A stretch of DNA of 63,931 nt, counting the filler, from Candidatus Nanoarchaeia archaeon (GTDB taxonomy: Archaea > Nanobdellota > Nanobdellia > Woesearchaeales > DATDTY01): the NCBI GenBank assembly GCA_035290625.1. It is 7 parts of 7 records of this genome, joined end to end, with 100 filler letters (N's around TTAATTAATTAA, not from the genome) between each part and the next. Parts side by side here need not be neighbours in the genome. Positions count along the whole stretch, not along the records: positions 1 to 17,489 come from DATDTY010000033.1; 6 more parts are not named here. One strand, given 5' to 3'. Every line of letters starts with the position of its first letter. Positions within the stretch are counted from its first letter, which is position 1. Made by a program: the position numbers and the translations under genes. Positions 124 to 20,639 of this stretch are shown here, one piece after another. The notes beneath the pieces were generated by a model. The model saw only the letters and a program-made list of their open reading frames with translations, did not search any database and was not told the DNA's origin.

Positions 124-128
124 AATGT

Positions 129-5206: not shown

Positions 5207-5209
5207 GTA

Positions 5210-5282
5210 TGGGTCCACCCGGATTCGAACCGGGGACCTTCACCTTGTGAAGGTGATGTCATAACCGCTAGACCATGGACCC
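5210..5282 (-). tRNA. tRNA-Val (anticodon CAC), no intron, CCA not encoded
   Basis: Reverse complement GGGTCCATGGTCTAGCGGTTATGACATCACCTTCACAAGGTGAAGGTCCCCGGTTCGAATCCGGGTGGACCCA folds as a cloverleaf with a GTTCGAATC T-loop. Confidence 0.96.
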
Positions 5283-5414
5283 TTGCATGCCTGTGTTTTA
5301 TGATATGTTTTTAATGTTTTTGTAAAGATCAGACACGAGAAATGAACATCAGAAATCAGAAGGAGGGCCCGGCAATGTTGGGGGGTTGGGTAAGAATCAG
5401 GCGCCAGGCCCTTC

Positions 5415-5831
5415 TTATGAGAGTTTCTTTTTCATGAGTTGAGGAGGTTTTCGCAGCTCTTGGAGCCACATTAATCCTATACGGATCATCTCTTTATTGA
5501 ACCTATCCGAAATCTTGTATGTCTTTTTGTAAAGGTCATAGTCAATGATGCCCATGCTTTTCATGGGAGTCAGGATGCGATCATAAAACTGCCTTTTGTT
5601 GTAGGAAATCCTGACTTTCTTTCCCCAGTATTCGGGCTCGTCTATTGTTGTTATCAGAGTGCCGTCGTGAAGCCTGGTAGCAAAGAGAGACATCTCTGTC
5701 TTTGTCATCTCCCCTTTATTCTCTTTTATGTTTTCTATCAGTAACTTTCCCACAATCTTCTGCTGCTTTGTGGCGAAAATCACTTCATAGATATTGTCGG
5801 GGAGGTTGAACCTGTCAAACAACAATACCAT
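5415..5831 (-). CDS. Hypothetical protein, possibly winged-helix
   Basis: 138-aa ORF with a TATA-like TTTATATA upstream; C-terminal wHTH-like pattern (ILTPMKSMGIIDYD). Confidence 0.7.
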   Translation of the reverse strand: MVLLFDRFNLPDNIYEVIFATKQQKIVGKLLIENIKENKGEMTKTEMSLFATRLHDGTLITTIDEPEYWGKKVRISYNKRQFYDRILTPMKSMGIIDYDLYKKTYKISDRFNKEMIRIGLMWLQELRKPPQLMKKKLS

Positions 5832-5939
5832 GTACCTTAGGGTTAGGTTGAACTAATATATAAATGTTTCTATAATAGATACTAGTATAGAGAAATGTAT
5901 ATTATTGATTCGTATGATTCGTATATATCCTTGGTACCC

Positions 5940-7001
5940 TTATTGGGATTCCTTCTGCCTGAAAAGATACGCAGAGCATCTCATCCTGTCTTTCCAGGTG
6001 TCAATGTCAAGGCTGCAGTGAGGCGGGACCAGAACCATCCTCCCGTGAATCCCTTTCTCCTCCCTGAACATCTGCTCTGCTTCAAGAACAGACCATTTTC
6101 CTGTTCCCAGATCCAGCAATCCCCTGAAACCCTTGCTTTGATACGCCTCTCCCATAATCCTTCTTTTTGAGTACAGCATCGGTATCATGCTGCTTTTCTC
6201 GTCCACTGCATTTACTTGGGCTAGGAACATGTTTCCAGACATGTACATGTCGATATCCCTGCCTGTCAGGATAGTTTCTTTGTCATTCAATGGAATTCCA
6301 AACTTCCTTAGGTTGCCAGGGAGTAAACTTAATGGAAGGAGCAGGGGATGGTCGTTGAACCTCGGAATGCCATACGCTGCAAGGTCTTTCTTGGTAATAA
6401 ATGCCGCAAGATCTTTTCTTGACACAACTGCAGCATACATCTCAACACCTTCTATGCCCCTCTTCTGGGAATTCTCGACAAATATATCAATGTCATCTCC
6501 TGTAACCAAAGGGACATCCCCACTGATAATCAGAAGGTACTCCTGGCTATAGAAAGCCCCATTATGCAGAGCGCTCATTCCCAATTCGATATTCTCCTGA
6601 AGATCAGAGCCTTGCTGCTGGATGTGGATTCCCTTATCTTTCACTGTTCTCTGGATGCGCAGCTTTGGGCCTATGGGATAAATCTCCTCCTTGTTGATAT
6701 ACCTGCTCTGTTGGCATGCCTCAATAACCCTTTCAAGGCTTGTCCCAAGATTCTCCTGAGCTGCCTGCTTTCTCTCTTCCCTGTCCTTCCAAACTGAATG
6801 AAGCATGCTTACTATGCCAAAATGCCTGCTTTCCGGAGGCTTGTCTATTGTCAGCAGTGATTTGTTCCTTCCAATGATGAACTGCTCCCTATAGATCCTG
6901 CCAACCCATTCTTTTTCCTCCTGCTCCTGAGCTTTGGCCGTTCTTCCCTGATTATGGCCTGCGAGGATCAGCGCAGCTAATGACCCCGGTTGGATACCCA
7001 T
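5940..7001 (-). CDS. MobA-like NTP transferase domain protein
   Basis: ALILAG, GRNKSLL, LIISGDVPLVT and C-terminal DIDT motifs. Confidence 0.7.
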   Translation of the reverse strand: MGIQPGSLAALILAGHNQGRTAKAQEQEEKEWVGRIYREQFIIGRNKSLLTIDKPPESRHFGIVSMLHSVWKDREERKQAAQENLGTSLERVIEACQQSRYINKEEIYPIGPKLRIQRTVKDKGIHIQQQGSDLQENIELGMSALHNGAFYSQEYLLIISGDVPLVTGDDIDIFVENSQKRGIEGVEMYAAVVSRKDLAAFITKKDLAAYGIPRFNDHPLLLPLSLLPGNLRKFGIPLNDKETILTGRDIDMYMSGNMFLAQVNAVDEKSSMIPMLYSKRRIMGEAYQSKGFRGLLDLGTGKWSVLEAEQMFREEKGIHGRMVLVPPHCSLDIDTWKDRMRCSAYLFRQKESQ

Positions 7002-7139
7002 CTCTCCCTCTGGAATCTTTCTCCCCTTTTAACTTTTTTCCCTCCTTAAAAACCCCCACCACAAACTTTATATAACAACTGTGCTTTGCAGCCTATAGGT
7101 CATTACCTGTATATTCGAGGACACACATGAGGGGGATGT

Positions 7140-7418
7140 ATGAAGAATACCAAGATATTCAACGTTTTCTTTCGAGAGAAGCCGGCGATGATGCTGATTA
7201 ATCTCAGGAACTCAAAAAGCAACGTCTACGCATCTTCCCTCGCAAAGTCGATCGATTGCACGTATTCCCATGTGGTGAAGATTCTTCAGCAGATGGAGAG
7301 AAATGATCTTATCAGCTTCAACAAAAAGGGCAGATTAAAGCTTCTTACGCTGACAAAGAGGGGAAGCGACATCGCAGATTCAATCGATTCAGTCAGGAAC
7401 TCTCTTTTGACCCGCTAG
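7140..7418 (+). CDS. Winged-helix (MarR-like) transcription regulator
   Basis: SSLAKSIDCTYSHVVKILQQME..GRLKLLTLTKRG; SD GAGGGG and TATA upstream. Confidence 0.85.
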   Translation: MKNTKIFNVFFREKPAMMLINLRNSKSNVYASSLAKSIDCTYSHVVKILQQMERNDLISFNKKGRLKLLTLTKRGSDIADSIDSVRNSLLTR

Positions 7419-8819
7419 CTTGCCCAGCACGTCTCTGGCAGCTTCAAGAAATTCTTTCTCTTTGCCCTGCGGGATGACAGACCCTGCTGCGTAGATATGG
7501 CCGCCAGTGCTGCTGCCATCAACTCTTGATGTGATCTCTTCCATGATGCTCCTGAGGTCGATGGAGCCGTCGCTCTGAAAGCCGGCCCGCCTGATGCTTG
7601 CCTTCAGGGTCTTGTCCGGAGCCTCTGCCATAGAAATAATAATAGTGCCGGGCCTGGTGGTGTTTGATTTTGCGATCATAGATGCTATCGTGCCGATCAT
7701 GGTGCTGAGTATCTCTGTTCCTGCGCTGATGATCATATAGCCCGGATGCTCCTGGACAGCCGCAGTTCCGCGATGCGCCTCAAACCATTGCATGGCAGCA
7801 ATGATCTCCCTTCGGTATTCCAGCAGGTGGCTGATTGCCTGCCTCTTCATCTTCGGATCGCCGAGGCACGCTCCGATTCCCAATGAGGCTTTTCCCATCC
7901 TGCCGCAGGAGTTGAGCAGTGTTGCAAATTCCTTTGCGTCTCTGAGAGGAGATTCTTCTTCCTCCTGCTCGAGGATGTAGATATTGCCAAGGACATCTTC
8001 GGGCTTGGCTTCGCCCCGCCTGGCCAGTACCACGCCTGCTACAAGTGCCTGCATCTCCTCCTGGCTGAGATCAGCCATCTTCTTCCATCCCTTTCCCTTC
8101 TTTGGGCTGATTCCGAGATTATGGAGGAACTGAATTGCGCCTGATTCAGATCCAGAGACACCAGGGATGTAGGGGTCTGTGCTGTACCCAAGGATTTTAT
8201 GGATCGGCCGGGTCTGCATCCCAAACAGCCGAAGACCTTTCTGGACACTTATCTTACCCTGGTTTCTTGCGGTCTCAAGGATGCTGGCGTTGAGCCTTTC
8301 AAAACCGCTATTCTCCTGAGCGTCGCCAATCGCTCCAACAATGGCAAGGTGAGCACATGCCTCGTTCTTCCTGTCCAGAGCCTCAGCAAACATATAAGCA
8401 ACTCCGGCTCCGCTGACTTCCCTTGATCCCTCAATGCCAAACATGTGCGGGTTGATGTGGAGAACCCTGTCGTTGCCGACGCCGGACACTTCATGATGGT
8501 CAAGGATCACAACATCTTTGCTCTTAAGATGCTCCTTCACCTGTTCTATCATCCCTGAGCCAAGGTCTGTAAACGCGATGATTTTGTACTCCTCTTTTGC
8601 GAGCTCTTTGATGAACGTCTCAGTAAGCTGAGGCACGATAGAAATGGCAAAGCCCCTATTTTGGCTCTTCAGCGCATGGATGAGGATTGAGGCTGCGCAG
8701 ATCCCATCGCAGTCAAGGTGCGATATTATCCTGACTGTTTCATTTTTCAGCTCCTGAAATTTTTTTGCAGAATCAGCAATATGCTTGCGAAATGCATCAT
8801 ATTTATCCATCAGCACCAT
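7389..8819 (-). CDS. RecJ-like DHH/DHHA1 phosphoesterase (archaeal exonuclease family)
   Basis: SHLDCDG, TDLGSG, LDHH, GAIGD and GGHIYAAG motifs; lies downstream of rps15 as in many archaea. Confidence 0.92.
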   Translation of the reverse strand: MVLMDKYDAFRKHIADSAKKFQELKNETVRIISHLDCDGICAASILIHALKSQNRGFAISIVPQLTETFIKELAKEEYKIIAFTDLGSGMIEQVKEHLKSKDVVILDHHEVSGVGNDRVLHINPHMFGIEGSREVSGAGVAYMFAEALDRKNEACAHLAIVGAIGDAQENSGFERLNASILETARNQGKISVQKGLRLFGMQTRPIHKILGYSTDPYIPGVSGSESGAIQFLHNLGISPKKGKGWKKMADLSQEEMQALVAGVVLARRGEAKPEDVLGNIYILEQEEEESPLRDAKEFATLLNSCGRMGKASLGIGACLGDPKMKRQAISHLLEYRREIIAAMQWFEAHRGTAAVQEHPGYMIISAGTEILSTMIGTIASMIAKSNTTRPGTIIISMAEAPDKTLKASIRRAGFQSDGSIDLRSIMEEITSRVDGSSTGGHIYAAGSVIPQGKEKEFLEAARDVLGKLAGQKRVPD

Positions 8820-8856
8820 GCACTTTCAGTTATTATATAAAGATATCTTAACCTGC

Positions 8857-9060
8857 GGCTGCGGTGAAAATCTCGCTTCGCGGCTACCGCCAAGTTCGCA
8901 ATTTGCGTCCCTTACTCCTATAATCGACATTCGTCCCCGACGGGGCATCCCCCGACAGCGGAAATCAAAGATTTCCTGGGTTTGCTAACGCAAACAGTCG
9001 ATGCTCTGATCCCAATAATGTTGCTCACAAAGGGCGGCAGCACTGATTTTCACCGAAGCC
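8857..9060. mobile_element. Nested-hairpin MITE-like element, copy B
   Basis: TIR GGCTGCGGTGAAAATC/GATTTTCACCGAAGCC; perfect 9-bp TSD TTAACCTGC (8848-8856, 9061-9069). Confidence 0.88.
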
Positions 9061-9087
9061 TTAACCTGCCAGAATCCACAGAATGCG

Positions 9088-9540
9088 CTACGTGGTGTAC
9101 TGTATCCGCTTGGCGTCAATCTTCCATCCAACCGGAAGCTTTCGGATTTTTTTATAATACTTTATGAGACGCTTTATTTTTGCGTCTGTCAGCTGCAGGC
9201 CCCGCTTGGCAACCATGTCCTTCTTGTTGACTTCAAAATGCTTTCGCAGGGCGTTGCTCCTCTTCATCAGGGCAAAGAGGTCTTCAGGAATCTCCGGAAG
9301 GATCTTCTTTTCCTGGAGTATCCCCGTGATCTTCTTTTTGAGAATTGGGCGGACATCGGGGATTCCGTAGGTGTCTCTCAGGATGAGCCCAATCTGGGAA
9401 GCGGATTTTCCCTCCTTCGCCAGTTTTGCAATAATAATCTCAATCTCTTTTGGCTTATAGCCAAGCCAGGCAGGCTTGGTCCTTTTGACAGGCCTTTTTG
9501 AGCCTGACTTTCCCCGTTTTCTTGAATACATCCTTGCCAT
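9088..9540 (-). CDS. rps15: 30S ribosomal protein S15 (uS15), archaeal type; true start at 9540
   Basis: MARMYSRKRGKSGSKRP, GLILRDTYGIP, IPEDL, RGLQLTDAKIKRLIKYYK. Confidence 0.97.
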   Translation of the reverse strand: MARMYSRKRGKSGSKRPVKRTKPAWLGYKPKEIEIIIAKLAKEGKSASQIGLILRDTYGIPDVRPILKKKITGILQEKKILPEIPEDLFALMKRSNALRKHFEVNKKDMVAKRGLQLTDAKIKRLIKYYKKIRKLPVGWKIDAKRIQYTT

Positions 9541-9637
9541 AGAATACGCATCTCCGGCATATATTCGCTTTCGCCAATATACCCCTTGCGTGCTATTGAG
9601 GAACTTTGGATTGTTTATAAATGTTTCGAGATGGGCT

Positions 9638-9757
9638 GGTTGCCGCCTTTTTTTGCGAGGCTCAACCAACCGAGGCGTCAGCAGCGGAGGGGGTTGTCCC
9701 TTACGGGCGAGGTGCCGCTCTTTGCTGAAAAGATGAAGAGCCGAGCTGGCGGCAACC
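9638..9757. mobile_element. Inner module of the MITE-like family, copy C (no outer TIR)
   Basis: GGTTGCCGCC..GGCGGCAACC inverted ends; almost identical to 11917-12033. Confidence 0.75.
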
Positions 9758-10153
9758 CTCAGCTGATATACTTACTGTGATGCTGTGTGTCTTCATCATC
9801 CTCTTGAGATTGGTGTTAAGCCCGGCTGCAGATTTGGAGGCTTTGGTGGCAAATGTCCTTGAAGAGAGAAATTCTGTTGTCCTTATCACCATTTCATCTG
9901 CGTCTGAAAAATCCCTGTTCGGGACAGCAATCAATGAATCTTGCGCATCTCCGGATTGTATCGCAATCTTCAGCTTGTCCTCCTTTCTCAAGGCTGCCAG
10001 GAATCTCTTCATCTGCTGCAGCTTGAAGTCTGCCTGGATGCCAACTATACAGGTTCCCCTCGGAGTAAGGTGAGAGTCCCGCGTAAACTCCAGCGTTGTT
10101 TTATGGCTTGCCCTGATATTTGGGTGGCCTTGGCAGGTAAATCGGATTTCCAT
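9701..10153 (-). CDS. DUF371 family protein; last ~18 codons derive from the repeat element
   Basis: GHPNIRASHKTTLEFT, RGTCIVG and C-terminal KASKSAAGL motifs. Confidence 0.88.
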   Translation of the reverse strand: MEIRFTCQGHPNIRASHKTTLEFTRDSHLTPRGTCIVGIQADFKLQQMKRFLAALRKEDKLKIAIQSGDAQDSLIAVPNRDFSDADEMVIRTTEFLSSRTFATKASKSAAGLNTNLKRMMKTHSITVSISAEGCRQLGSSSFQQRAAPRP

Positions 10154-10157
10154 CGAA

Positions 10158-11852
10158 TCATTTAGCCAGCTGCTTTACTTCTTCGTATGCTTGCCTCATC
10201 TTCCTGTAGAAAATGGCTTTCGCCTTGCTTGTGAAGTCCATCTCAAGAAGCTCTGCGTATGCCTTCTTTGCTTTTGGGTAGGATGCTGCGATGGCTTTTT
10301 TGTCTCGCCTCTGTATGGAATGCTCCAGCTTACGGAGCCATTCATTGAACTCAGCGACTTTGCCCCTCTTTGGGTCTAATGAAGCTGCAGCCTGGCGCTC
10401 TCCAATCCCCTGGCCCTTGATTTCCTGATCCTTTATCTCCTGGCGCAGGAGGCTTTTTGACAGGATGTCGCGGTGTTTCTTAACCAGCTCAACTTTCTTT
10501 CTAATGACTGCTTTTCCTGCCTGCCTGCTTAATGACTCTATACTTCTCGCTGCTGCTTCAAGCGAAGGCATGAGCCTGTCTACCTGCCTGATATCTGCCT
10601 GGCTGATTGCGTGCTCGCTTTGGCTCAGGTACTGATTAAAGGCCTTGAGGTACTTGTTAAACCTCTGCCGTTGCCGTTCCTCGGGGGACTTCAGGATGCG
10701 GAGCTTTCCAAGCCATCCAATGGCTGTCCGCATGATCCAGACAGCAATAATGAAGAGAACTACAACGCTTGCGATCAGTGGAAGGAGAGGAACAGCTTGC
10801 CTGGCTGCTGCTGCAATCTGCACTAAAGGCAATACTCCGCTGTAGGGGAATACAGCAACCACAGCGATGAAGAGCCATAGCGTAATGATCCATATCCAGA
10901 GCCATTCCTTCTGGATATCCTCTTTGGCTTGCTTTGAGGATACTCTGTACTGGTTTATAGAGGTATATGCCCATAACCCGACGAAGAAATAAATGTATGC
11001 TGCCACAGCAAAGAGGGCGATTGCCGCAACAAATGCAGTAAGCCAGCACCAGGAGGATTCCACGCATATCTGCTTGAGTGTTGAGAGCTGGGATGCAGCT
11101 CCTACGTCAAGGAGAGCGCTTGCTGTTCCAACTGAGCTGCCATAGGTTGCGATGGCGGAAAAGACATACTCTCCTCTGGCGAGATTATCGGGGATATGGA
11201 CTCTCTTGAAGAAAGATGCCTGTGTCTTGACAACGACGCTTTCACTTTCTGTGATAATTGTGTTGCTTGCGGTGTCTTTGAGCTGGTACTCCATCTGGAC
11301 ATTTGCCTGGGAGAGGCCTAGGAGATTAAAGAGGCGGACCTCAATGGTGAAGTCTCCGCCCTGAGGGACTTCTCTGCCGGCAGAAACCGGGTTGAGGTTC
11401 ATGTCAAAGAGGACGTCTTTGCTCTCAACCTCTATAACTACAGGAATGGACTTGGGCTGATTGCCTGAGATGATAAGCTTGCCCACATACACTCCTGGGG
11501 AGAACGATGTTCCAGCTTCCTCATCCTGCGGAGAGAACCGAAGGAAAAGGATTTTCGTCTGGCCGGGCTGCAGGAGGAATTGCTGCTCAGGGATTTTTAT
11601 CAGGCCTTCAGCCCCTGCTGCCTGTATGCTTATGTGTTCAGCATTCAGGCCCCGGTTACTAATCCTGACAGGCCTGGAAATAAACTCACCCTGTTTTACC
11701 ACTACTTTGATAAGAATCTGATCAACATCAATTGATGCCCCTGATGCTCCTGCCGCAGCTTCTTGCTTTGGAATCTGCTGCTGCAGAAGGATGCCGCTTG
11801 AGAGAAGGATAGCTACCAGCACTACAATCCCTATATGCTTAAGGGGATTCAT
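10158..11852 (-). CDS. Surface/membrane protein with two Ig-like domains, internal TMs and a helical cytoplasmic tail
   Basis: Signal/TM; PGVYVGKL and VLFDM motifs shared with the neighbouring paralogue; several hydrophobic segments. Confidence 0.8.
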   Translation of the reverse strand: MNPLKHIGIVVLVAILLSSGILLQQQIPKQEAAAGASGASIDVDQILIKVVVKQGEFISRPVRISNRGLNAEHISIQAAGAEGLIKIPEQQFLLQPGQTKILFLRFSPQDEEAGTSFSPGVYVGKLIISGNQPKSIPVVIEVESKDVLFDMNLNPVSAGREVPQGGDFTIEVRLFNLLGLSQANVQMEYQLKDTASNTIITESESVVVKTQASFFKRVHIPDNLARGEYVFSAIATYGSSVGTASALLDVGAASQLSTLKQICVESSWCWLTAFVAAIALFAVAAYIYFFVGLWAYTSINQYRVSSKQAKEDIQKEWLWIWIITLWLFIAVVAVFPYSGVLPLVQIAAAARQAVPLLPLIASVVVLFIIAVWIMRTAIGWLGKLRILKSPEERQRQRFNKYLKAFNQYLSQSEHAISQADIRQVDRLMPSLEAAARSIESLSRQAGKAVIRKKVELVKKHRDILSKSLLRQEIKDQEIKGQGIGERQAAASLDPKRGKVAEFNEWLRKLEHSIQRRDKKAIAASYPKAKKAYAELLEMDFTSKAKAIFYRKMRQAYEEVKQLAK

Positions 11853-11856
11853 TGTA

Positions 11857-13215
11857 TCATTTTAGGAATCTTCTTTTATATAGCTTTGCATGGCTGCGGC
11901 TCAGTAGAACGTCTGCGTTGCCGCCTTTTTTGCGAGGCTCAACCAACCGAGGCGTCAGCAGCGGAGGGGGTTGTCCCTTACGGGCGAGGTGCCGCTCTTT
12001 GCTGAAAAGATGAAGAGCCAAGCTGGCGGCAACCGGCGGCTTGTGAGCGAGTGAGAAGGGGCTTACTCGCAAGCCACGCCGAGACTTTCTACTGAGCCCA
12101 TGGCTGCGTTTTGCAGGCGGTGCAGCTGGCATTTTCCTGAAGCGGCTTCTCAACAGGAGCAGCAGCAGGATGAGCGCCACAACTACGCCAATTACATTTG
12201 CAAATGAAAATGGCTGCGGCTCTGTGATTGTGAACGTCTGGCTGGAAACTGCAAACCCGTTCTTGTAGAGGATCTCGACGATTGCAACATAAGCTCCTTT
12301 CTCCAGGTTTTGTGTGTTGTACTCTTTTCTGTACGAGAGCTGATTCTGAACCTTGAGGCTTTCGTTTGATTGGAAGAGGACATTTCCATCAAGGTCTTTG
12401 ATGATGTAAGTTGCCTGAACATCTGTGCCTCTCTCTTTGAGGTTGAAGAGGGTAATCTGCGCATAGAGACTCCTGCCCTGAGGTATCTCATGGTTGGGAA
12501 TGTCAAGGCTGACGTCGAAGATAATATCGGCTGTTTTTACTTCAATGGTCACTGGAATCTCTTTTGATATCCCTTCTGATGAGAGCGTGAGCTTTCCAAC
12601 ATAGACTCCTGGCTGTTGGCCTGATGAGGCCTGCAGTGTAATTTGGGCAGAACTTCCCTCTGCAATAGAGAGGCTTGAATCTGATGAGAGCAGGGAGGCC
12701 GCTTCTCCTGATATATCGATGCTGAGATCAAGGTCAGTGTTGCCGGTGTTTGTGACTGAAATTTGCTTTTCATCTTCTGCTCCAAGAACAAGAGTGAAGG
12801 TAATGCTTCCTGGAGAGGCTGAGAACCCCGGGTGGGGCCATTCTATGGTTGCGTTGCTCCCTCCTCCACCTCCTCCACCACCGCCTCCTCCTGCTGATGC
12901 TGCGGCTCCTGCAGGGCAGGATGCCAGGCATGTTCCTGAGCAGCAGGCTCCTGACATGCAGTCCCTGTTCGCTTCGCATGGGTCTCCGTTTGCGTACTGC
13001 AGGCGGAAGAAGAAGCCGAAGAAGCTTCTGAAGTTTGCTGAAGACGCGTTTCCTGAGACCGGCGTTACAGCAAATGAGGATTGGTAATTGCTGCTTGAGG
13101 AGTTTGTTGAGCCAGGTGAAGGGTCTGCATCGAAGACAAAGTTTGAGTTGCTCATTGTCTGTGCAGCAGCTAATGGGAACAGCAATGCTGCGATGATATA
13201 ATAGAGGGTTCTCAT
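11857..13215 (-). CDS. Secreted/membrane-anchored Ig-like protein with a Gly linker; cytoplasmic tail carries an in-frame MITE
   Basis: Signal peptide, Cys motif, poly-Gly, PGVYVGKL, C-terminal TM; RSH duplicated around the insert. Confidence 0.8.
   Translation of the reverse strand: MRTLYYIIAALLFPLAAAQTMSNSNFVFDADPSPGSTNSSSSNYQSSFAVTPVSGNASSANFRSFFGFFFRLQYANGDPCEANRDCMSGACCSGTCLASCPAGAAASAGGGGGGGGGGGSNATIEWPHPGFSASPGSITFTLVLGAEDEKQISVTNTGNTDLDLSIDISGEAASLLSSDSSLSIAEGSSAQITLQASSGQQPGVYVGKLTLSSEGISKEIPVTIEVKTADIIFDVSLDIPNHEIPQGRSLYAQITLFNLKERGTDVQATYIIKDLDGNVLFQSNESLKVQNQLSYRKEYNTQNLEKGAYVAIVEILYKNGFAVSSQTFTITEPQPFSFANVIGVVVALILLLLLLRSRFRKMPAAPPAKRSHGLSRKSRRGLRVSPFSLAHKPPVAASLALHLFSKERHLARKGQPPPLLTPRLVEPRKKGGNADVLLSRSHAKLYKRRFLK
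11898..12098. mobile_element. Nested-hairpin MITE-like element, copy D, inside a CDS
   Basis: TIR GGCTCAGTAGAA/TTCTACTGAGCC; perfect 9-bp TSD CATGGCTGC (11889-11897, 12099-12107). Confidence 0.9.
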
Positions 13216-14357
13216 GCCTGAGCACCTTCACCAAGCCTACTACCAGAGCCCTCGTAGCCTGTTCTATTCTTATATGTTCTATTCTTATATATTGCGTGCA
13301 GTGGAAAAAATTCATAATAGCTATTTTCGTCGAACCACGCGCATTTGAATGATTTGATGTCGAGTTTTGTCCTTGACGCTAGGCTGAGTGCGTAGAGCGT
13401 GAGCTGTTCAATTGGGTTGCAGCTTTTTGCTTCGGGCTTGTAATCTAAGATGTGGATAAGGCTGTTTCTTACCTGGAGGATGTCGATATGGCCTGTGATG
13501 GGGGTTTTTGCATTGCTGAGGTTTAGGGTGAATCCTCTTTTCTGGAAGTATATGATATCATCTTTTGTGAGATAGACCGGGATTTCTGTTGCAATGGTTG
13601 TTGAGTCGTTGGTTATGAAGAAGCCCTGGAGCGCTTTATGGCGCTGAGCGTTGCTCCTTGCGAGGTTGAGGGCCAGCTTTGCCAGCTTGTTTGCTGCGTT
13701 GGCCTTTGAGATGTGAATGATATTTAGGTGCGAGAACTTGATTTGAGATGCCCTTTTTTGGCTGCTTAATTGCGGCGTGTCCAGCCTAGAATGTCTTCTG
13801 TATTCTTTAAAGATATGATGAGGGAACTTGTTTGTTGGGATTTTGCTGAGGTATGATTTGAGAGGGTCGTAGAATCTGCTGGTATTGGTGAATTGGTTGT
13901 TGTATTTGGGGTGGTGGAAGAGGACTTCGAGCTTTGCCTTGTGGATTTGGAATGTGTACGGCAGGTTGTTGTGGAGAAGGGGGTATGACTCTATAATCTG
14001 GCCTGGGGAGAAGATCTTTTTTGCTTGGCCTCTTAGTTTGCTGAATGCGCAGATATTCTTGTATTCGCTTAGCCATTTGGCGATGGTTGACGGGGGGAGC
14101 TTTGTTGCGGCCTGCTTTTCTATGATGTTTGATGTATCTTTCAGGCTGTGGCCAAGGTTGTAGGTAGAGATTGACTTTAGGATGATGCCTATGGGATAGG
14201 TTTTGTTTTTTGATTGGCTCTGTGTGAAGACGGATTTGCAGACTTTGCATTGATATTTTTGGATGGCCTGGAATTTGTTTTTTGCGAAGCCTCTTTTGAC
14301 GGTTTGAGTGGAGCTACAGTTTTGGCAGGTGATTGTTTCTTTTGTTTTCTTTTGCAT
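13212..14357 (-). CDS. IS1 InsA-like zinc finger/HTH fused to a PD-(D/E)XK (RecB/Cas4-like) nuclease
   Basis: CQNC..VKRG..QKYQCKVC..F; TEIPV, TGHIDIL, ILDYK, EQLTLYA. Confidence 0.82.
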   Translation of the reverse strand: MQKKTKETITCQNCSSTQTVKRGFAKNKFQAIQKYQCKVCKSVFTQSQSKNKTYPIGIILKSISTYNLGHSLKDTSNIIEKQAATKLPPSTIAKWLSEYKNICAFSKLRGQAKKIFSPGQIIESYPLLHNNLPYTFQIHKAKLEVLFHHPKYNNQFTNTSRFYDPLKSYLSKIPTNKFPHHIFKEYRRHSRLDTPQLSSQKRASQIKFSHLNIIHISKANAANKLAKLALNLARSNAQRHKALQGFFITNDSTTIATEIPVYLTKDDIIYFQKRGFTLNLSNAKTPITGHIDILQVRNSLIHILDYKPEAKSCNPIEQLTLYALSLASRTKLDIKSFKCAWFDENSYYEFFPLHAIYKNRTYKNRTGYEGSGSRLGEGAQA

Positions 14358-14362
14358 TTTTT

Positions 14363-14508
14363 ATGCACCTGATTTGAGGCGGGTTTTCATTGGGTTATGC
14401 GCTGGATTTTGGAAGTTTGTGCGCACCTGATTTGGGCAGGCTTCATGCACCTGATTTGGGATGGGGTTTTCATTGGGCTGGGTTGGTGGGAACGTTTTGC
14501 GCAGGGGG
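14363..14508. repeat. Cluster of degenerate ATGCACCTGATTTG repeats (array scaffold)
   Basis: About four units; 14446-14508 is identical to 15442-15504. Confidence 0.85.
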
Positions 14509-14571
14509 CTGGTAACGAGATTGCTTGCACTCCATAATCTTTATATACCTCAATTGATTATTGCGCGTATA

Positions 14572-14700
14572 ATGAAATCGTTGGCTGATACTAAGGAGTG
14601 GAAAAAATTGAGGAAAAAGATAGAGGAAGCTCGGAAGGATCCTAAATTCAGAGCTTTTATAAGGAAGTTTATTGAAGCAACGTCTCATACTCATAGATAA
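14572..14700 (+). CDS. 42-aa microprotein convergent with PIN gene 1 (putative antitoxin)
   Basis: MKSLADTKEWKKLRKKIEEARKDPKFRAFIRKFIEATSHTHR; TTTATATA ~30 bp upstream; homologous to 16481-16612. Confidence 0.7.
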   Translation: MKSLADTKEWKKLRKKIEEARKDPKFRAFIRKFIEATSHTHR

Positions 14701-15212
14701 GCCTCCTTGAATTTTTGGTAGGGGATAAATTCTGGAGTTCTCATCTGATAATCCTTATCGACCCTTTCATATGCTTTAATGGCTTTTATGCCCAGCATAC
14801 TCTTTGTGTCGTGAGAGACAACAATATCCAGCTTATGAAGGGAAGCGCAGGCGATTATTTTAAAGTCATTTATTATATCATCATAACCGCAACCTCCTTT
14901 TAACTTATTATATTCTCCATAATACCTATTGGCGATCAGTTCTACCAAATCTGTAATCTTTAAAATGTGATTGTCTTTTCTAACAAATAGGTCATAGATA
15001 CTCAAGACCAGTTTTCGCTTACTTTCTGCGCCAATCCTCTCTTTTTTAGCAACCGCCCTCAGCTCATTCCTTATCAGCCTGTTGCCGTAAATCACAAATC
15101 TTTCCGGGATGCCTTTAACTATTTTAGGGACCACATCAATATCCTCTATCAATCTTCCATAAACGCTCGTATCCAGGATGATCCTTTTTTGTTGTTTATT
15201 TTGGATTTTCAT
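14691..15212 (-). CDS. PIN-domain ribonuclease 1 (probable start MKIQNK at 15212)
   Basis: IILDTSVY, RNEL, NDFKIIACA, IVVSHD acidic tetrad. Confidence 0.85.
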   Translation of the reverse strand: MKIQNKQQKRIILDTSVYGRLIEDIDVVPKIVKGIPERFVIYGNRLIRNELRAVAKKERIGAESKRKLVLSIYDLFVRKDNHILKITDLVELIANRYYGEYNKLKGGCGYDDIINDFKIIACASLHKLDIVVSHDTKSMLGIKAIKAYERVDKDYQMRTPEFIPYQKFKEAYL

Positions 15213-15286
15213 AGGCTGCCCTCGTTGAAAATGCAATTAACTGCAAAAAATACATTTGATCATCGATTTTCAGTTCGTCAGAGTTT

Positions 15287-15400
15287 TTATTGAAAATTCG
15301 GGGTTTAATACCCCGGGCTTTAGCCCGAATTTTCAATCCCGAAAACCGCACGATCAAAAACCCCGACCTTTAGGTCGGGGATTAGTGCGGTTTTCGTTAT
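15287..15400. mobile_element. Short palindromic element, copy 2 (lacks a 52-bp inner segment present in copy 1)
   Basis: Matches 129-294; the paralogous leader at 16261-16286 shows the empty site. Confidence 0.8.
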
Positions 15401-15598
15401 CATACTCTTTAGGGTTATGCATTGGATGTTTTCTTCGATTGTGCACCTGATTTGGGATGGGGTTTTCATTGGGCTGGGTTGGTGGGAACGTTTTGCGCAG
15501 GGGGGGGGCTTAGCCCAAGCGGGCAATTACCTTGCCTCCTGCCGGTGTGTTGAGTCAAACATAATCTTTATATATTCAGATGGTTTATTAGTTCTCTT

Positions 15599-15715
15599 AT
15601 GAAGAACCCTAAAACTATGACTTTTGCTGAGTTGATTAAACTTGCAGATGATATCAAGAGAGGCATCACTAAGAGATTCCTGAAATCTGCAAAAAAAATC
15701 GATATTTCTAATTAG
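15599..15715 (+). CDS. 38-aa microprotein convergent with PIN gene 2
   Basis: MKNPKTMTFAELIKLADDIKRGITKRFLKSAKKIDISN; same CATAATCTTTATATA promoter motif as the first microprotein. Confidence 0.6.
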   Translation: MKNPKTMTFAELIKLADDIKRGITKRFLKSAKKIDISN

Positions 15716-16190
15716 GGAACTCAATCTTTATCACCTCCATGTTATTTCTTGTTAGGATCTGGTTTATCATTTCTTGGTTGTTTTTGAGATGGACTCTGTT
15801 GAATGTGATGAGTGCGTCAAGCTGGAATATGCTTGTTATAAGTACAAGGATAGTGTCTTCTTCCTTTACCCCGGTTTTGATGAGCGCATTGATAACCTGA
15901 CTATAATCGATATTCTTTGCTTTTGCGTTTTCGAGAATCTCTTTAGTAGAATAAATCCTTGCTGCCCACAGTTCAAAAAATTCACTTATCTGGTCTTTAA
16001 GCCTCTCATGTTTCCATTGGTTGACTAATTCCAGAAGATGGTACGATGTGCAAAGTATGATATCCCCTCTCCTTATTTTCTCCATATATACCCTGGCCGC
16101 ATCTCCTCTCTCCCCTTTGTCCCATAGCCCAACTGTAACCACATCTAAATCTAGGAGGATTCTTTTTTTCGGTTTATTTTGGATTTTCAT
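15708..16190 (-). CDS. PIN-domain protein 2 (divergent)
   Basis: ILLDLDV, LLEL, EEDTILV, LDALITFN..HL. Confidence 0.78.
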   Translation of the reverse strand: MKIQNKPKKRILLDLDVVTVGLWDKGERGDAARVYMEKIRRGDIILCTSYHLLELVNQWKHERLKDQISEFFELWAARIYSTKEILENAKAKNIDYSQVINALIKTGVKEEDTILVLITSIFQLDALITFNRVHLKNNQEMINQILTRNNMEVIKIEFPN

Positions 16191-16289
16191 ATGAGTTTTC
16201 CTTTGCTGAAAATGTAATAAACTGTAAAAAAATACATTCGATCATTGATTTTCGATGAGTCAGAGTTTTTACCATGCTCTTTAGGGTGG

Positions 16290-16400
16290 GTTATGCATTG
16301 GGTGTTTTCTTCGATTATGCGCCGGATCTGGAGAGGTTTTTTTGGTCATAGGGGCTGGCTTTATGCGCCGGATTTGGAGAGGGTTTTTGGGTCATAGGGG
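16290..16400. repeat. Degenerate TTATGCGCCGGATTTGG variants of the array repeat
   Basis: Two TTATGCGCCGGATYTGGAGAGG..TTTT..GGTCATAGGGG units. Confidence 0.7.
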
Positions 16401-16480
16401 ATGGATTGGGGGATTTTTTTGGGGCCCGGCTTCGCATCTTATGCGAAATGTTTAAATATTGATTTAACCTTCTGTTTATT

Positions 16481-16612
16481 ATGAAATGCCAAAAACCCGA
16501 TTGGGATACATTGATAAGGGAGATTGAAGAGGCTAACAAAGATCCCAAGTTTGTGAAGGCTGTTAAGGAATTCATAAATATCACGTCAAACAGGAGGGTC
16601 TATAAGGTCTAA
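16481..16612 (+). CDS. 43-aa microprotein convergent with PIN gene 3
   Basis: MKCQKPDWDTLIREIEEANKDPKFVKAVKEFINITSNRRVYKV; TTTAAATA upstream; shares W..L..(R/K).IEEA.KDPKF..FI..TS with 14572. Confidence 0.72.
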   Translation: MKCQKPDWDTLIREIEEANKDPKFVKAVKEFINITSNRRVYKV

Positions 16613-17122
16613 TCTTCTTTTGTATTCTTGATATGGGATAAAATCAGGATTTTCCAATCCGTTTTCAGAATTTATTTTTTTGTACGCTTTCATTGCCAAC
16701 TCTGAAAGCATCGTTTTTGTGTCATGGGACACTACGATGTTCAATTCCTTTATCGAGGCTGAAGCGACGATTAAAAAGTCATTTTTCAGGCTATCATAAG
16801 GATATTTTCCATCGAATCTCCTGTATTTCTCATAATACTTTTTTGCTAATATCCTGATTAAGTCACCCATTATTATCTCATGGCCTGCGGTTAACCTGTC
16901 ATAGAGGTTTAAGAGCAGGATCCTTTTGCTCTGCTTACCTAATCTTGCCTGTGCTGATGTCTCTCTTAGCTCATTTCTAATAATCCTATTGCCATAAACC
17001 AATGTTTGGTTCCTTTCGATTCGTTTTTCTATCTTGGTTACTGTTTGAGGATCGAGCATCAATTCCCCATAAACGCTCGTGTCTAAAAGCGTTCTTTTTG
17101 GTGTTTTATTTTGGCTTTTCAT
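16586..17122 (-). CDS. PIN-domain ribonuclease 3, paralogue of PIN 1
   Basis: LLDTSVYG, YGNRIIRNELR, NDFLIVASAS, IVVSHDTK. Confidence 0.85.
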   Translation of the reverse strand: MKSQNKTPKRTLLDTSVYGELMLDPQTVTKIEKRIERNQTLVYGNRIIRNELRETSAQARLGKQSKRILLLNLYDRLTAGHEIIMGDLIRILAKKYYEKYRRFDGKYPYDSLKNDFLIVASASIKELNIVVSHDTKTMLSELAMKAYKKINSENGLENPDFIPYQEYKRRLDLIDPPV

Positions 17123-17242
17123 ATCAGGATCTTCCTCTTGTGTGGAAAGGCAATCATATAAACCACAAAAGCGGGATGCATTCGAGCATTGTTTGCGGGG
17201 ATTGTTTGAGGCAACTGATTCATGCAGTGTGTTTTATGCATT

Positions 17243-17489
17243 TGTGCACCTGATTCGAGGCAAGTTTTCATTGAACTATGGACAGGATTTAGGGTTCTCA
17301 TGCACTTGATTTGGTGCGGGGTTTTCATTTGGTCATGCACCGATTTTGGGCAGGCTTCATGCACGTGATTTGGGGTGGGGTTTTCATTTGGTTATGCACC
17401 TGATTTGGTGCGGTTTTTTAGGGTTGCCATGCACTTGATTTGGAGTGGGGTTTTCATTTGGTTATGCACCCGATTTGGTGCGGGGTTTT
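17243..17489. repeat. Tandem degenerate 35-bp (some shorter) repeats ATGCACYTGATTTGG..GGGGTTTTCATTTGGTT running to the contig end
   Basis: At least seven units visible; no unique spacers. Confidence 0.9.
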
Positions 17490-17589
17490 NNNNNNNNNNN
17501 NNNNNNNNNNNNNNNNNNNNNNNNNNNNNNNNNTTAATTAATTAANNNNNNNNNNNNNNNNNNNNNNNNNNNNNNNNNNNNNNNNNNNN
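17490..17589. other. Artificial contig linker (N-TTAATTAATTAA-N); identical linkers at 31203-31302, 42739-42838, 51704-51803, 56116-56215, 61127-61226
   Basis: Same 100-nt pattern with six-frame stops at every gap. Confidence 0.98.
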
Positions 17590-17991
17590 ATCAGGATAAC
17601 CTATGTTCAGCTCTCCGATATTGACCTGATCCAAGATCTTTCCTTTCTTGACAATGTACATATTGTTGCCAGTGTCAGAGGCAAGAGAATCAACCAGTAA
17701 CGGAAGACGAGCAAACGGAGGATTGTTCAACACTCTGTTCTTGATATCCTCATCAACAAAGTAGACTCTCTCTGCTCCGCAAAATCCCTTATACCTTTTC
17801 TCAAGGACAGCCCCCGCCTGCCTTGATACTCTTGGAGAGTCTGCCTGGATTCCTGTAATAAACGAAGTCAGCTCTGCAACGCACTGCTTCTCACGAAAAC
17901 CTATGGTCAGGCTATACGATGTGATCAGGATGCCTAATGCGACAATAGCTATGAGAACGTAGGAAAATGCCTGCATCTGGGCTTTGGGCAT
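17590..17991 (-). CDS. Class III signal peptide (pilin-like) protein, 3' end truncated by the contig edge
   Basis: MPKAQ followed by a hydrophobic stretch. Confidence 0.78.
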
Positions 17992-18367: not shown

Positions 18368-19099
18368 ATGAATGAAGATCTAGTTGATATGGTAGAAATT
18401 GAAGATGTAAGGACCCAAAATGGAGAACTTCCATTCAAAGAGTACCTCCCATTAAGAACATTTAGGGGTAACTATGGCGTACCCAGAAAAGTTGATCAAA
18501 CAGTTGTTAAAGGTTTTTTTGTTGCTGATGATAAAACAATCACAAGATTAGTTCAATTACAAGAAGCATATCATAACGAACTTAGACTTTCATTAACTAC
18601 TGTACCCACAGAGATTAATAGAGATGGAAATTTATTTTATCTCACTCAATCTTTCATTGGTGGCGTTAACTATGAACAGTTTCTACAAAGTGATGCCCCT
18701 CCAAAAGCAAAGAGGGCGATATACGAACAATTATTATATGACTCTTTAAATTTTATTTCAAAATCAGATAAAATTGTCGGTTTAGATGCTAAACCTGAGA
18801 ACTGGATGCAAACACAAGAAGGTCAATGGGCCTATATAGACACTTTCCCCCCATTCTTATTGGACGATGAAAATATATTTGGAGACATATTCACCTTAAG
18901 AGATTTTGAAAAAGATTTTGTAAGAACCCCCGAAAATTCTTTTTTTAGGAACAAAAGAAAAATTGCTAGACGTTTTTGGATGAAATCAGAAAAATTTTAT
19001 TCAGAGATGGATTATTTAAGTGCAACAATCCAAGTGATCAAATGTTTTGATCAAGAAACATCACGATTTTTTGAAAGATTTATGGAGAAATATAAATGA
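18368..19099 (+). CDS. Kinase-like fold protein (AT-rich island)
   Basis: GNYG loop, VVK, GLDAKPENW catalytic-loop-like and YIDTFPP DFG-like motifs. Confidence 0.62.
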   Translation: MNEDLVDMVEIEDVRTQNGELPFKEYLPLRTFRGNYGVPRKVDQTVVKGFFVADDKTITRLVQLQEAYHNELRLSLTTVPTEINRDGNLFYLTQSFIGGVNYEQFLQSDAPPKAKRAIYEQLLYDSLNFISKSDKIVGLDAKPENWMQTQEGQWAYIDTFPPFLLDDENIFGDIFTLRDFEKDFVRTPENSFFRNKRKIARRFWMKSEKFYSEMDYLSATIQVIKCFDQETSRFFERFMEKYK

Positions 19100-20010
19100 G
19101 AGAGTCGCCGCAAGCAAATCAAATGAAAGCAAGAGAACTGTTTTTGGAAGTTCATAGACCTAAAATAGTAAGCGATTATCAATTACCTCATGATGATTTA
19201 CATTTTGATAATACCATTACTGAACTAATCTTTGGTGGCATTTTTGTTGGAGAAGCAATATTTGATCATCTCAATCAAGAAGGGACGGTAAGTAACCTAA
19301 TCGCCATTAAAAACGAACATAGAGAAAGACTATTAAAGTCAGATCATCTATCTATTGAGGGATACCGGGAAAAGTGGGAAAGACATTTAGATTATGAGTC
19401 TCTTATTATGGATAAAATGATAGATTTAGAAAAAACTCCCGTAGAATTATTATGTGTACCCAGTGGGAGATCTTTTTTTCATCAACAAAGAATGTATTCA
19501 TTAATGCATCAAGGCCATCAACTAGCACAAAAAGATCAATCAAATGAAAGGTCCCAATGGTTTAGTCAATGGGATGATAGATGGTTTTGTAAAAATGGTT
19601 CAACAAGATTTAGATTAATTGATATACTCCAACAATACACCGATGATTGGGTAGACAGGTTTGCCATGCGAAATATTCCAGAGGAAACATCAATAGATGA
19701 TGTTTATGAAAAAATGCAAGATTTACACAGAAAAAAAATGATTTCAGCGTATAGCGCGCAAAAGAGGTATACTGCTTTTATTAAAAAACATCCTGAATCC
19801 AAAGCATATGCAAGATTCGTATCTGAAGCTATGGAATATAATGAAGAATTAAGGTTATTAAGAAGTCAATCTATATTTGATTTTATCCAGGGTAGCAGAT
19901 ATTATGGCAAACAACCCTTTGCTGAATTTTTAGACGTCTTGGCTACTCGGCAAAAAAGGATAGCACGCTTATATGGAGGTAAAATACATGTCCCTATTAA
20001 AACAGATTAG
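19096..20010 (+). CDS. Hypothetical protein (AT-rich island)
   Basis: 304-aa ORF, ATGA overlap with the previous gene. Confidence 0.75.
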   Translation: MRESPQANQMKARELFLEVHRPKIVSDYQLPHDDLHFDNTITELIFGGIFVGEAIFDHLNQEGTVSNLIAIKNEHRERLLKSDHLSIEGYREKWERHLDYESLIMDKMIDLEKTPVELLCVPSGRSFFHQQRMYSLMHQGHQLAQKDQSNERSQWFSQWDDRWFCKNGSTRFRLIDILQQYTDDWVDRFAMRNIPEETSIDDVYEKMQDLHRKKMISAYSAQKRYTAFIKKHPESKAYARFVSEAMEYNEELRLLRSQSIFDFIQGSRYYGKQPFAEFLDVLATRQKRIARLYGGKIHVPIKTD

Positions 20011-20398
20011 AGCAGAGCAAAGTGTCAAAACATTCTTTCAAAATGAGTGGGATGATGAAAAGCATTGGATACACTGCCAATGTGTTGTTGATGCTTGTTT
20101 AGGTATGATCAAAAACACTGATTTAGATCCTGTAGTTTTTATACTGGCTGGCTGGTTACATGATCTGGGTAAGATTATCGATAAAGAAAATCATCATAAA
20201 GAAAGTATAAAATTTGTGACGAAGTTTATTAATCAATATCCCGAGTATAAAGATTATTTAAGTTTAATAGAGGACTGTATTATAAATCATAGAAGTGAAG
20301 GCGTTCCCGCAAGTGTATATGCACACATTTTCCAATTAGCAGATAAAGTTGCAGTATCTAATCATGATTGGATAGAATACAAAAAGAAAAAAAGATAA
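19988..20398 (+). CDS. HD-domain phosphohydrolase
   Basis: HCQCV, WLHDLGK, NHH, NHRS, LADK; GGAGG SD before the ATG at 19988. Confidence 0.85.
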   Translation: MSLLKQIRAEQSVKTFFQNEWDDEKHWIHCQCVVDACLGMIKNTDLDPVVFILAGWLHDLGKIIDKENHHKESIKFVTKFINQYPEYKDYLSLIEDCIINHRSEGVPASVYAHIFQLADKVAVSNHDWIEYKKKKR

Positions 20399-20492: not shown

Positions 20493-20639
20493 TCAATTTG
20501 ATGTAATAAACGAAGTCAGCTCTGCAATGCACTGCTTCTCACGAAAACCTATGGTCAGGCTATACGATGTGATCAGGATGCCTAATGCGACAATAGCTAT
20601 GAGAACATAGGAAAACGCCTGCATCTGGGCTTTGGGCAT
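20493..20639 (-). pseudogene. Truncated duplicate of the first 46 codons of the pilin-like gene at 17991
   Basis: 20502-20639 matches 17854-17991 at 135/138 nt, then reads SN-stop. Confidence 0.85.

Follow-up and report, generated by a model that had tools for sequence, protein, structure and literature searches.

The closest described systems are the type II VapBC modules (Shigella and Salmonella VapBC, FitAB, archaeal VapBC4). In the sections of Makarova 2009 covered here (PMC2701414), the VapBC signature is a two-gene operon with a DNA-binding antitoxin. The locus described here shares with these modules the VapC/PIN fold, four acidic residues in one of its PIN clades and a small partner that is modelled over the active site. 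It differs in that the genes are convergent, the partner has only 35-50 residues and no DNA-binding domain, and this putative antitoxin has its own promoter, which the toxin usually lacks. Clustering of unrelated toxin-antitoxin (TA) pairs, turnover and toxin decay are also known from TAS islands and TA hotspots (PMC2701414, PMC13617665, PMC13385816); the parts of these papers considered here do not describe convergent pairs or start-codon duplications. The cassettes of polymorphic toxins (Rhs, CDI) are similar in that a piece of the resident gene on the cassette could serve recombination (PMC3482391, in part). Here, in contrast, it is the 5' end of the downstream gene that is shared, the modules are intracellular and are added to an operon without replacing a toxin tip, and each PIN has an ORF of its own (160-178 aa) with no fusion to an exported stalk. 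The literature covered, mostly outside subscription papers and supplements (which may list these PIN clades), holds no account of convergent PIN/microprotein pairs or of start-codon cassette arrays.

The window, i.e. the whole analysed stretch of 63,931 nucleotides from Candidatus Nanoarchaeia archaeon (assembly GCA_035290625.1), contains three such units with the following features.

13212-14357, minus strand: gene of 381 aa, Zn-ribbon / PD-(D/E)XK-like, downstream of the array
14358-14571, no strand: spacer J0, repeat cluster; 63-bp copy at 14446-14508
14540-14547, plus strand: TATA box of m1, 32 nt before the ATG; probably a leaderless transcript
14572-14700, plus strand: m1, 42-aa microprotein of the KDPxF family, predicted antitoxin of PIN1
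14691-15212, minus strand: PIN1, predicted VapC-like RNase of 173 aa; 10 bp overlap with m1
15213-15598, no strand: spacer J1, PIN leader, MITE and repeats; 63-bp copy at 15442-15504
15290-15396, no strand: MITE of 107 bp, double hairpin between TTA direct repeats in the spacer of units 1 and 2
15567-15574, plus strand: TATA box of m2, assigned by sequence and family-wide position
15599-15715, plus strand: m2, 38-aa microprotein of the second family (LADEIK)
15708-16190, minus strand: PIN2, VapC-fold protein of 160 aa, second clade (DLDVVT); 8 bp overlap with m2
16191-16480, no strand: spacer J2, repeats and PIN leader (about 80% identical to J1)
16451-16458, plus strand: TATA box of m3, with a purine-rich BRE-like stretch in front
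16481-16612, plus strand: m3, 43-aa microprotein of the KDPxF family
16586-17122, minus strand: PIN3, 178 aa, PIN1 clade; 27 bp overlap with m3
17123-17489, no strand: spacer J3, longest repeat cluster and PIN leader

The initial annotation had proposed three tail-to-tail microprotein/PIN pairs with a TATA box ahead of each microprotein. All three pairs and their overlaps are present, and each TATA box lies 30-32 nt ahead of its ATG. Homologues of the 381-aa gene occur in other such arrays, and thus this gene is possibly a passenger too.

The structural models of PIN1 and PIN2 (pLDDT 94) have VapC structures as top Foldseek matches; the best matches of the PIN models are 2bsq, 6nkl, 6ifc and 4chg. 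PIN1 scores above the cut-off of Pfam PF01850, PIN3 scores below it and PIN2 has no match. NCBIfam offers no name for these proteins. In the PIN1 clade Asp14, Glu50, Asp116 and Asp135 are invariant among 56 aligned relatives. The PIN2 clade (20 rows) has invariant Asp14, Asp16 and Asp112, the second acidic residue is variable and the fourth acidic position is occupied by Asn (N131). PIN2 may therefore not be an active toxin. The two clades cannot be aligned with each other (hhalign probabilities of 2.5% and 1.8%). PIN1 and PIN3, which had been regarded as close paralogues, are 46% identical and are not sisters in the tree; their grouping was rejected with p-AU 0.025 in a test that comprised 20 of the 56 rows and addressed a group picked after a first tree. 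A single-sequence search with PIN3 against the genome contigs returned nothing and a closer alignment succeeded; likewise, PIN2 as a single sequence found no relative in 100 genomes and its alignment did. Viral contigs contained no relative of either PIN clade.

In Woesearchaeota-like genomes the two unrelated clades each have a convergent partner family of their own, with members of 35-50 aa. Among 16 genomes outside profile building, 16 of 17 PIN ORFs have an opposite-strand partner, and in 14 of these pairs the stop codons lie within 33 nt of each other. The named records, which share members with the other PIN sets, give 62 of 64 PINs with a partner on the opposite strand and none with one on the same strand (45/47 outside the training set). 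The co-directional two-gene operon, the hallmark of VapBC, is thus absent here. A census found 108 of 112 intact PINs to be paired. For the second clade the count is 44/47, obtained with a profile derived from the very loci it counts; two of the three exceptions hold a family member according to the HMM and the third is located at a contig end. The 3' overlap is conserved and is mostly 4-38 nt. Microproteins are therefore kept beside homologous PINs elsewhere, always in convergent orientation; lack of such conservation had been named as the main observation that would speak against the original proposal. Only 3/112 intact PINs are without an HMM-detected partner. Conversely, 27/136 microproteins adjoin a PIN fragment or no PIN, where the fragment class comprises truly decayed genes as well as contig ends and sequencing errors.

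A TATA box, typically about 30 nt upstream, precedes the microprotein in 51/58 and 28/31 cases in the two clades (7.8 and 5.1 after shuffling). Ahead of the PIN it is found in 15/58 and 0/32 cases. Purifying selection acts on both microprotein families, with pN/pS of 0.147/0.488 and 0.112/0.658, the pN values being biased downwards by the choice of pairs with at least 60% protein identity. At the level of comparative sequence analysis, the convergent pairing, the microproteins' own TATA box, the selection on the protein and the lack of a TATA box ahead of most array-borne PINs are established.

The m1 family (272 clusters at 50% identity) provides partners without a DNA-binding domain, as no Pfam family is common to more than 4 of 56 members. 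The longer matches among the best 150, when inspected by eye, were extended starts or tandem copies. A search for longer relatives of m2 yielded none, which is weak evidence, and the ESM Atlas contained no usable match for m1. The m2 protein weakly resembles the C-terminal tail of RHH-type VapB (probability 44%, E 2e-4 in a pairwise comparison), which is suggestive. A similar relation was considered for the m1 family; no similarity to the RHH-VapB tail was found (probability 0.8%).

The predicted complex of PIN1 and m1 has a score of 0.72 (best of three controls 0.00). The mark applied to this score is attained by 116 of 157 solved pairs and 2 of 215 mismatched pairs, a calibration that is only roughly valid for the alignments used here. 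At least 89% of the contacts recur between runs, and the pLDDT of the partner is at least 77. The predicted interface includes Asp14, Thr15, Ser16, Glu50, His134 and Asp135. The model supports an arrangement in which m1 covers the active site of PIN1, and it may pass through likeness to solved VapBC structures. For PIN1 and m1, the proposed cognate complex is thus backed by a predicted structure.

In the window, 63 bp at 14446 and 15442 are identical, as reported initially, and the shared first codons of PIN1 and PIN2 were confirmed (the first 43 nt are 86% identical). The PIN leaders of these units are similar, but with 79.7% identity over 123 bp the description as near-identical was overstated. 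The repeat clusters between the units were also found. The spacer motif, searched as one regular expression, has ten matches on contig C33, all in the array region, and a single further match elsewhere in the 1.37-Mb genome. The spacers are non-coding and bear only a loose likeness to the start of the downstream gene. The ATGCACCTGATTTG repeats are peculiar to the present genome. In the arrays elsewhere, the scaffold duplicates the 5' end of whichever host gene follows. The array was suspected to run on past the contig break. This is not the case, as the assembly L074 (99.4% identical over 5.8 kb) crosses the break and contains exactly three pairs. It extends about 200 bp further through the repeats and beyond J3 reaches a large gene of secreted type, with GNVGIGT repeats, at its 3' end.

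The MITE in the spacer of units 1 and 2 had been overlooked. It has 11 copies in the genome, folds well compared to shuffled sequences (z -8.1) and is missing from the homologous point of J2. A derivation of the PIN N-terminal extension from the start of the 381-aa gene is suggestive at most, the match being A-rich. Strict polar growth of the array was not adopted, with the spacer similarities being out of order.

In the relatives, direct repeats bracket 32 of 73 cassettes (control 8/540); at the threshold used 41 have no flanking repeat, and cassettes that share an array or near-identical contigs are non-independent counts. The repeats copy the ribosome-binding site, the start codon or the leader peptide belonging to the host gene that follows. 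They are about 16 to 200 bp long, and their sequence tracks the host gene. Leaders end at the PIN start or overlap it. Copies of one leader precede cassettes of unrelated content, i.e. both PIN clades, MNT-HEPN, DUF1016 and Schlafen. There are two genus-level empty sites, both in one genus. A single cassette is inserted exactly at the start of a host gene with about 16 nt duplicated, and the site is empty in a genus-mate; the empty-site comparison of G094 and G368 is cut short by a contig end. Compared across genomes, the location at host translation starts, the bracketing by copies of these starts and the empty sites are thus established. A stand-alone clade has flanking repeats in 4/23 and its own TATA box in 10/23 cases and is held at one locus in two genus-mates. 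Canonical co-directional RHH-VapB/PIN pairs are present in the same arrays (L051, L081). The suggested turnover within a repeat scaffold holds between genus-mates and for the non-sister PIN1 and PIN3 with one leader, but not as shuffling within the population. No cassette loss and no cassette-skipping joint was found in four runs (X2, X3, X11, X20), from contigs, which drop rare variants.

The pairs are probably true TA modules, and an accretion of cassettes driven by homology is fairly likely. The strongest competing view, which we consider unlikely, accepts the convergent TA pairs and regards the arrays as ordinary TA islands, formed by local tandem duplication through unequal crossing-over and then altered by gene replacement or conversion, in which case the repeats would be scars and not an entry route. 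Such islands are already known (PMC2701414, PMC13617665, both in part), the tree places sister PINs within some arrays (pairs in L010 and L050, and L046/L049), no recombinase is linked and this population shows no turnover. It does not account for unrelated cassettes behind copies of one leader, for the lone cassette with its duplicated host start opposite an empty site, or for PIN1 and PIN3 being non-sisters. In an integron-like alternative the spacers would be attC-type sites served in trans by a tyrosine recombinase, as in CALINs. Bacterial superintegrons and archaeal integrons, which are reported to include Nanoarchaeota (PMC9668308, in part), likewise have tandem, mostly co-oriented small TA-rich cassettes whose spacers resemble each other more within a genome than across genomes, and this genome has three matches to tyrosine recombinases. 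Unlike in integrons, no integrase is adjacent and folding reveals no attC-like hairpin in the spacers, of which eight strands are no more stably folded than shuffled sequences (z from -0.7 to 1.4). The one recombinase scanned of the three lies about 98 kb away and reaches 196 of 265 bits, below the cut-off of TIGR02249. Together with the variable, host-derived repeats, this makes an integron origin highly improbable.

The function of the microprotein could also be different. The PIN may be a non-toxic RNase which the bound microprotein activates or stabilises or for which it serves as an adaptor, or the two together may form a sensor for abortive infection that is released by a virus. The missing DNA-binding domain, a clade that is stably kept at a housekeeping locus, the atypical active site of PIN2 and defence-type genes among the neighbours fit this role. 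Nevertheless it is improbable, because the predicted interface covers catalytic residues, microproteins persist beside broken PINs far more often than PINs persist without a microprotein, and none of PIN1, PIN2 and PIN3 has a PADLOC match; an infection-triggered role would in any case be compatible with a TA module. Scarcely credible is a type I-like locus with an antisense transcript as antitoxin and an incidental small ORF. Convergent overlapping transcription, conserved here, is reportedly typical of type I loci (in part PMC6563280). Here, in contrast, the opposite-strand genes encode proteins of two conserved families on which purifying selection acts, the leaderless-type promoter is positioned for the ATG, the PIN1-m1 complex is confidently modelled and the toxin has an enzyme (RNase) fold and is not a small hydrophobic peptide.

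Probably, the locus represents a non-operonic variant of type II VapBC, with homology-driven accretion at the start codons of host genes. Each unit would consist of a VapC-fold RNase and an antitoxin of 35-50 aa, encoded on the other strand so that the 3' ends of the genes overlap. The antitoxin would be reduced to the toxin-binding element. Transcription of the toxin may come from the surrounding host operon, and expression of the antitoxin may be constitutive and driven by its own promoter. In place of the absent autorepression, control may come from head-on transcription and the antisense overlap. Most likely, a cassette lands by single-crossover homologous or microhomology recombination. 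Direct repeats invite deletion, so that addictive cassettes would be those retained. The three cassettes of the window would reflect at least two separate acquisitions, with flanks homogenised locally.

A broader reading is tentative. Woesearchaeota-like archaea may capture genes without an integrase, with TA and other conflict cassettes entering at start codons of genes in surface-protein operons and duplicating the ribosome-binding site or an exon-like signal-peptide leader. The convergent "headless" antitoxin with its back-facing promoter could be an adaptation that allows a toxin cassette to sit safely at whatever start codon it enters and wires toxin output to the expression of the attachment operon. 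It could have arisen more than once, by truncation of conventional VapB.

TA finders seek operons of two co-directional genes in which the antitoxin binds DNA, and these modules would therefore be scored as orphan PINs. This suggests that some "solo" toxins may have an unannotated partner on the opposite strand. Separate promoters and head-on transcription in place of autorepression would constitute a different control logic for type II systems, and the predicted VapC inhibitors of 40 aa would be minimal, testable reagents. The setting is a lineage of tiny groundwater DPANN archaea with almost no genetics, in which the hotspots lie behind genes of large secreted proteins. The duplications of start codons hint that cassette arrays may grow there without an integrase.

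Positions 1–17489 of the window come from one end of contig C33; the genome (G000) has 1.37 Mb. Three small genes (m1–m3) and three VapC-like genes (PIN1–PIN3) are arranged there as three tail-to-tail units, as described in the initial annotation.

14572–14700, plus strand: m1, pairs with PIN1 (overlap 10 bp)
14691–15212, minus strand: PIN1, convergent with m1
15599–15715, plus strand: m2, pairs with PIN2 (overlap 8 bp)
15708–16190, minus strand: PIN2, convergent with m2
16481–16612, plus strand: m3, pairs with PIN3 (overlap 27 bp)
16586–17122, minus strand: PIN3, convergent with m3

The reported TATA box is seen 30–32 nt upstream of each of m1, m2 and m3. The 63-bp identity between units 1 and 2 and their common first codons are real; the PIN1 and PIN2 leaders, described as near-identical, are 79.7% alike over 123 bp. 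The array had been thought to continue past the contig break. A second assembly (L074) extends across the break and, some 200 bp further, runs into a large GNVGIGT-repeat gene. Thus, the array consists of exactly three pairs. Read depth across the units is flat in two well-covered runs and the units are therefore not an assembly artefact. Groundwater and soil metagenomes are the source of the listed runs that contain the stretch. Other assemblies have three extra G at position 15499 and a different repeat copy number in the last cluster (17325–17489), by homopolymer error or strain variation.

A fourth pair of this genome, with a frameshifted PIN, is located on contig C84. Positions 4300–6400 of C84 (L016) form a second array with a 120–140 bp spacer copy of its own. 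It contains an aspartyl-protease pair, an HTH-like gene and the frameshifted PIN, whose convergent microprotein is intact.

The spacer between units 1 and 2 harbors a 107-bp hairpin MITE (15290–15396), which had been missed. All 11 genome copies have TTA on both sides, and the corresponding position in the following spacer (unit 2/3) lacks the element. Copies with short and long internal variants are found on C33, C67, C84, C28, C55, C6, C43 and C17. Downstream of the array (13212–14357) lies a 381-aa Zn-ribbon/PD-(D/E)XK-like gene of an unnamed family, with homologues (56, 35 and 32% identity) within other toxin-antitoxin arrays (L084/L085, L083 and L087). On the next contig, a low-GC insert (18368–20398) lies between the ORFs 17542–17991 and 20493–20639, whose products share their N-terminus (MPKAQMQAF...), a further case of a duplicated 5' end.

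The structure models of PIN1 and PIN2 (pLDDT 94) match VapC structures best. Asp14, Glu50, Asp116 and Asp135 are kept in 56 of 56 rows of the PIN1/PIN3 clade. None of 20 PIN2-clade members has a Pfam PIN match; the clade keeps Asp14, Asp16 and Asp112, with Asn at the fourth site. Neither the two PIN clades nor the two microprotein families can be aligned with each other. PIN1 and PIN3, described as close paralogues, are 46% identical. In the tree, PIN1 groups with PINs of genomes G038 and G243 and PIN3 with one of G203. Holding PIN1 and PIN3 together was rejected (p-AU 0.025, 20 of 56 rows); tree placement and this test exclude them as sister paralogues.

The microproteins are conserved beside homologous PINs. 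Of 401 genomes from the order, 43 contain the PIN1 clade, among them G131, which carries an unpublished flag; for the phylum it is 35 of 401. Its named relatives carry mostly Woesearchaeota, Nanoarchaeota and Nanoarchaeia titles, along with three Aenigmatarchaeota and several others, e.g. Methanosarcinales. In 16 genomes outside profile building, 16 of 17 PIN ORFs have an opposite-strand microprotein of the m1/m3 family (KDPxF), and the stops are at most 33 nt apart in 14 of these. Among named records, 62 of 64 PINs have an opposite-strand partner (45 of 47 outside the training set) and none a same-strand one; these records overlap the held-out genomes, so the counts are not additive. The PIN2 clade occurs in 6 of 401 genomes and 52 metagenome loci, and its Atlas cluster is wholly archaeal, Woesearchaeota being commonest. 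The window's genome is probably that of a Woesearchaeota-like DPANN archaeon. A different convergent family (LADEIK) accompanies 44 of 47 distinct near-complete genes, counted on the loci from which its profile was built. Of the remaining three, two have a family member that the HMM recognises; the third gene lies where its contig ends.

Inspection by eye showed additional PIN types with convergent partners in L050, L054, L111 and L098. Among them are at least two types with small partners of their own (L050:6455–7007, L054:84–738, L054:1827–2453, L111:1607–2377). Convergent pairs also occur on short contigs whose titles read Phycisphaerae, Pirellulales and Thaumarchaeota (L241:1154–1642, L206, L205), by binning error or transfer.

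The microproteins come from genuine, independent genes. Of the microprotein starts in the two families, 51 of 58 and 28 of 31 have a TATA motif 18–45 nt upstream (7.8 and 5.1 after shuffling), with a peak at −29/−30, as against just 15 of 58 and 0 of 32 PIN starts. In both families pN is well below pS (8 and 9 pairs, picked at ≥60% identity, which biases the ratio). The m1 family comprises 272 clusters at 50% identity. Longer members among its best 150 are, by eye, over-extended starts or tandem copies, with no fused DNA-binding domain. Two tandem binding-element copies per ORF are present at L077:1460–1699 and L095:706–951 and in the sequences P0005, P0006, P0064 and P0141. m2 weakly resembles the C-terminal tail of RHH-type VapB proteins from the same arrays (probability 44%; the NCBIfam VapB match of these proteins is under cut-off); m1 has no likeness to this tail. 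Other partners presumably end like archaeal VapB tails. Decay is lopsided: microproteins without an intact PIN are far commoner than intact PINs without a partner. Of 136 distinct microproteins, 21 are beside a PIN fragment, a class including contig ends and errors, and six beside no PIN. Three of 112 intact PINs have no HMM-detected partner, and two of these have a divergent one by eye.

The predicted PIN1-m1 complex scores 0.72 (best control 0.00); among reference pairs, 116 of 157 solved ones and 2 of 215 mismatched ones attain the score mark. Contact agreement between runs is at least 89% and partner pLDDT at least 77. The modelled interface includes Asp14, Thr15, Ser16, Glu50, His134 and Asp135. 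The model lends support to a putative binding of PIN1 by m1, and its score may reflect resemblance to VapBC structures already solved. Distances among PINs track those among their partners (rho 0.38, against at most 0.20 after shuffling), in a set whose related members are not independent.

In the L068 array, MNT-HEPN-like pairs, a gene called DUF1016-like by resemblance and a PIN pair make up four cassettes, each behind a 45–51 aa leader copying the 5' end of the array-closing 941-aa gene. L052, L049, L054, L096 and L102 share this construction; L109 has short copies, each ending at a start codon. Truncated 45–80 aa signal-peptide ORFs stay open before each cassette (L068:4399–7700, L052, L054, L096, L102) and may themselves be translated as membrane peptides. 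A back-facing BRE-TATA-like motif is also present in the spacers preceding non-PIN cassettes (L051:537–4873, L109:3150–5350); it could produce antisense RNA to the cassette upstream or work both ways.

Of 73 cassettes whose flanks are long enough, 32 lie between direct repeats (26 under a stricter score), compared with 8 of 540 ordinary ORFs of the window's genome (7 under the stricter score). The left copy mostly terminates at the PIN start or slightly within it; the right one usually spans the microprotein promoter to the next gene start. By clade, 4 of 23, 16 of 28 and 12 of 22 are bracketed, the first being a stand-alone clade whose PINs often have their own TATA. Within one genus, two genes abut in G101 and are separated in G189 by a PIN pair and an orphan microprotein. 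The PIN start occupies the former host-start place, and ~16 nt comprising ribosome-binding site and ATG are duplicated. The genus has another hotspot, which is occupied in G250 and vacant in G189. Seven arrays lie behind homologues of one 1000–1100 aa secreted-type gene, whose homologue on C13 of the window's genome has an empty site. This family (1000–1200 aa, almost without Pfam matches) marks a recurrent cassette hotspot across families (L049:2511–5840, L050, L051, L052, L054, L058, L112, G000:C13).

Shuffling of cassettes within a repeat scaffold, as initially suggested, is partly borne out. The empty and filled sites of genus-mates and the separate contents favor it: the unrelated PIN1 and PIN2 have leader and first codons in common and PIN1 and PIN3 group apart, so the contents most likely arrived separately and the flanks were homogenised locally. 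Active shuffling is opposed by the lack of a cassette-skipping joint in four runs and by the window spacer, which is non-coding and only loosely like the start of the downstream gene.

In the proposed working, the toxin would ride the host operon and the antitoxin, made from its own back-facing promoter, would plug the toxin active site. With no DNA-binding domain in the antitoxin, control may lie in transcript ratio, head-on transcription and peptide turnover. Such a cassette would be safe at any start codon. Cassettes would enter by recombining at a copy of the target gene's 5' end, and the repeats (16 to 200 bp) would therefore track the host gene and not a fixed site. If a cassette were lost through these repeats, toxin would remain with no antitoxin, which would favor addictive cassettes.

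In Makarova 2009 (PMC2701414), VapBC is defined by a two-gene operon and a DNA-binding antitoxin; the convergent pairs would work alike, yet have neither. The array resembles an integron array (PMC9668308) in appearance, but its spacers do not fold and no integrase is adjacent. The proposed recombination via a segment in common with a resident gene is reminiscent of polymorphic-toxin cassettes (PMC3482391). The main text of a PIN classification paper (PMC5499597) lacks the terms 'convergent', 'opposite strand', 'DPANN' and 'Woesearchaeota', and no description of the layout was found in the incomplete literature set covered. On comparative evidence, it is well supported that the pairs represent a new variant of type II toxin-antitoxin systems, and the cassette-accretion pattern that holds them may be a new kind of system.
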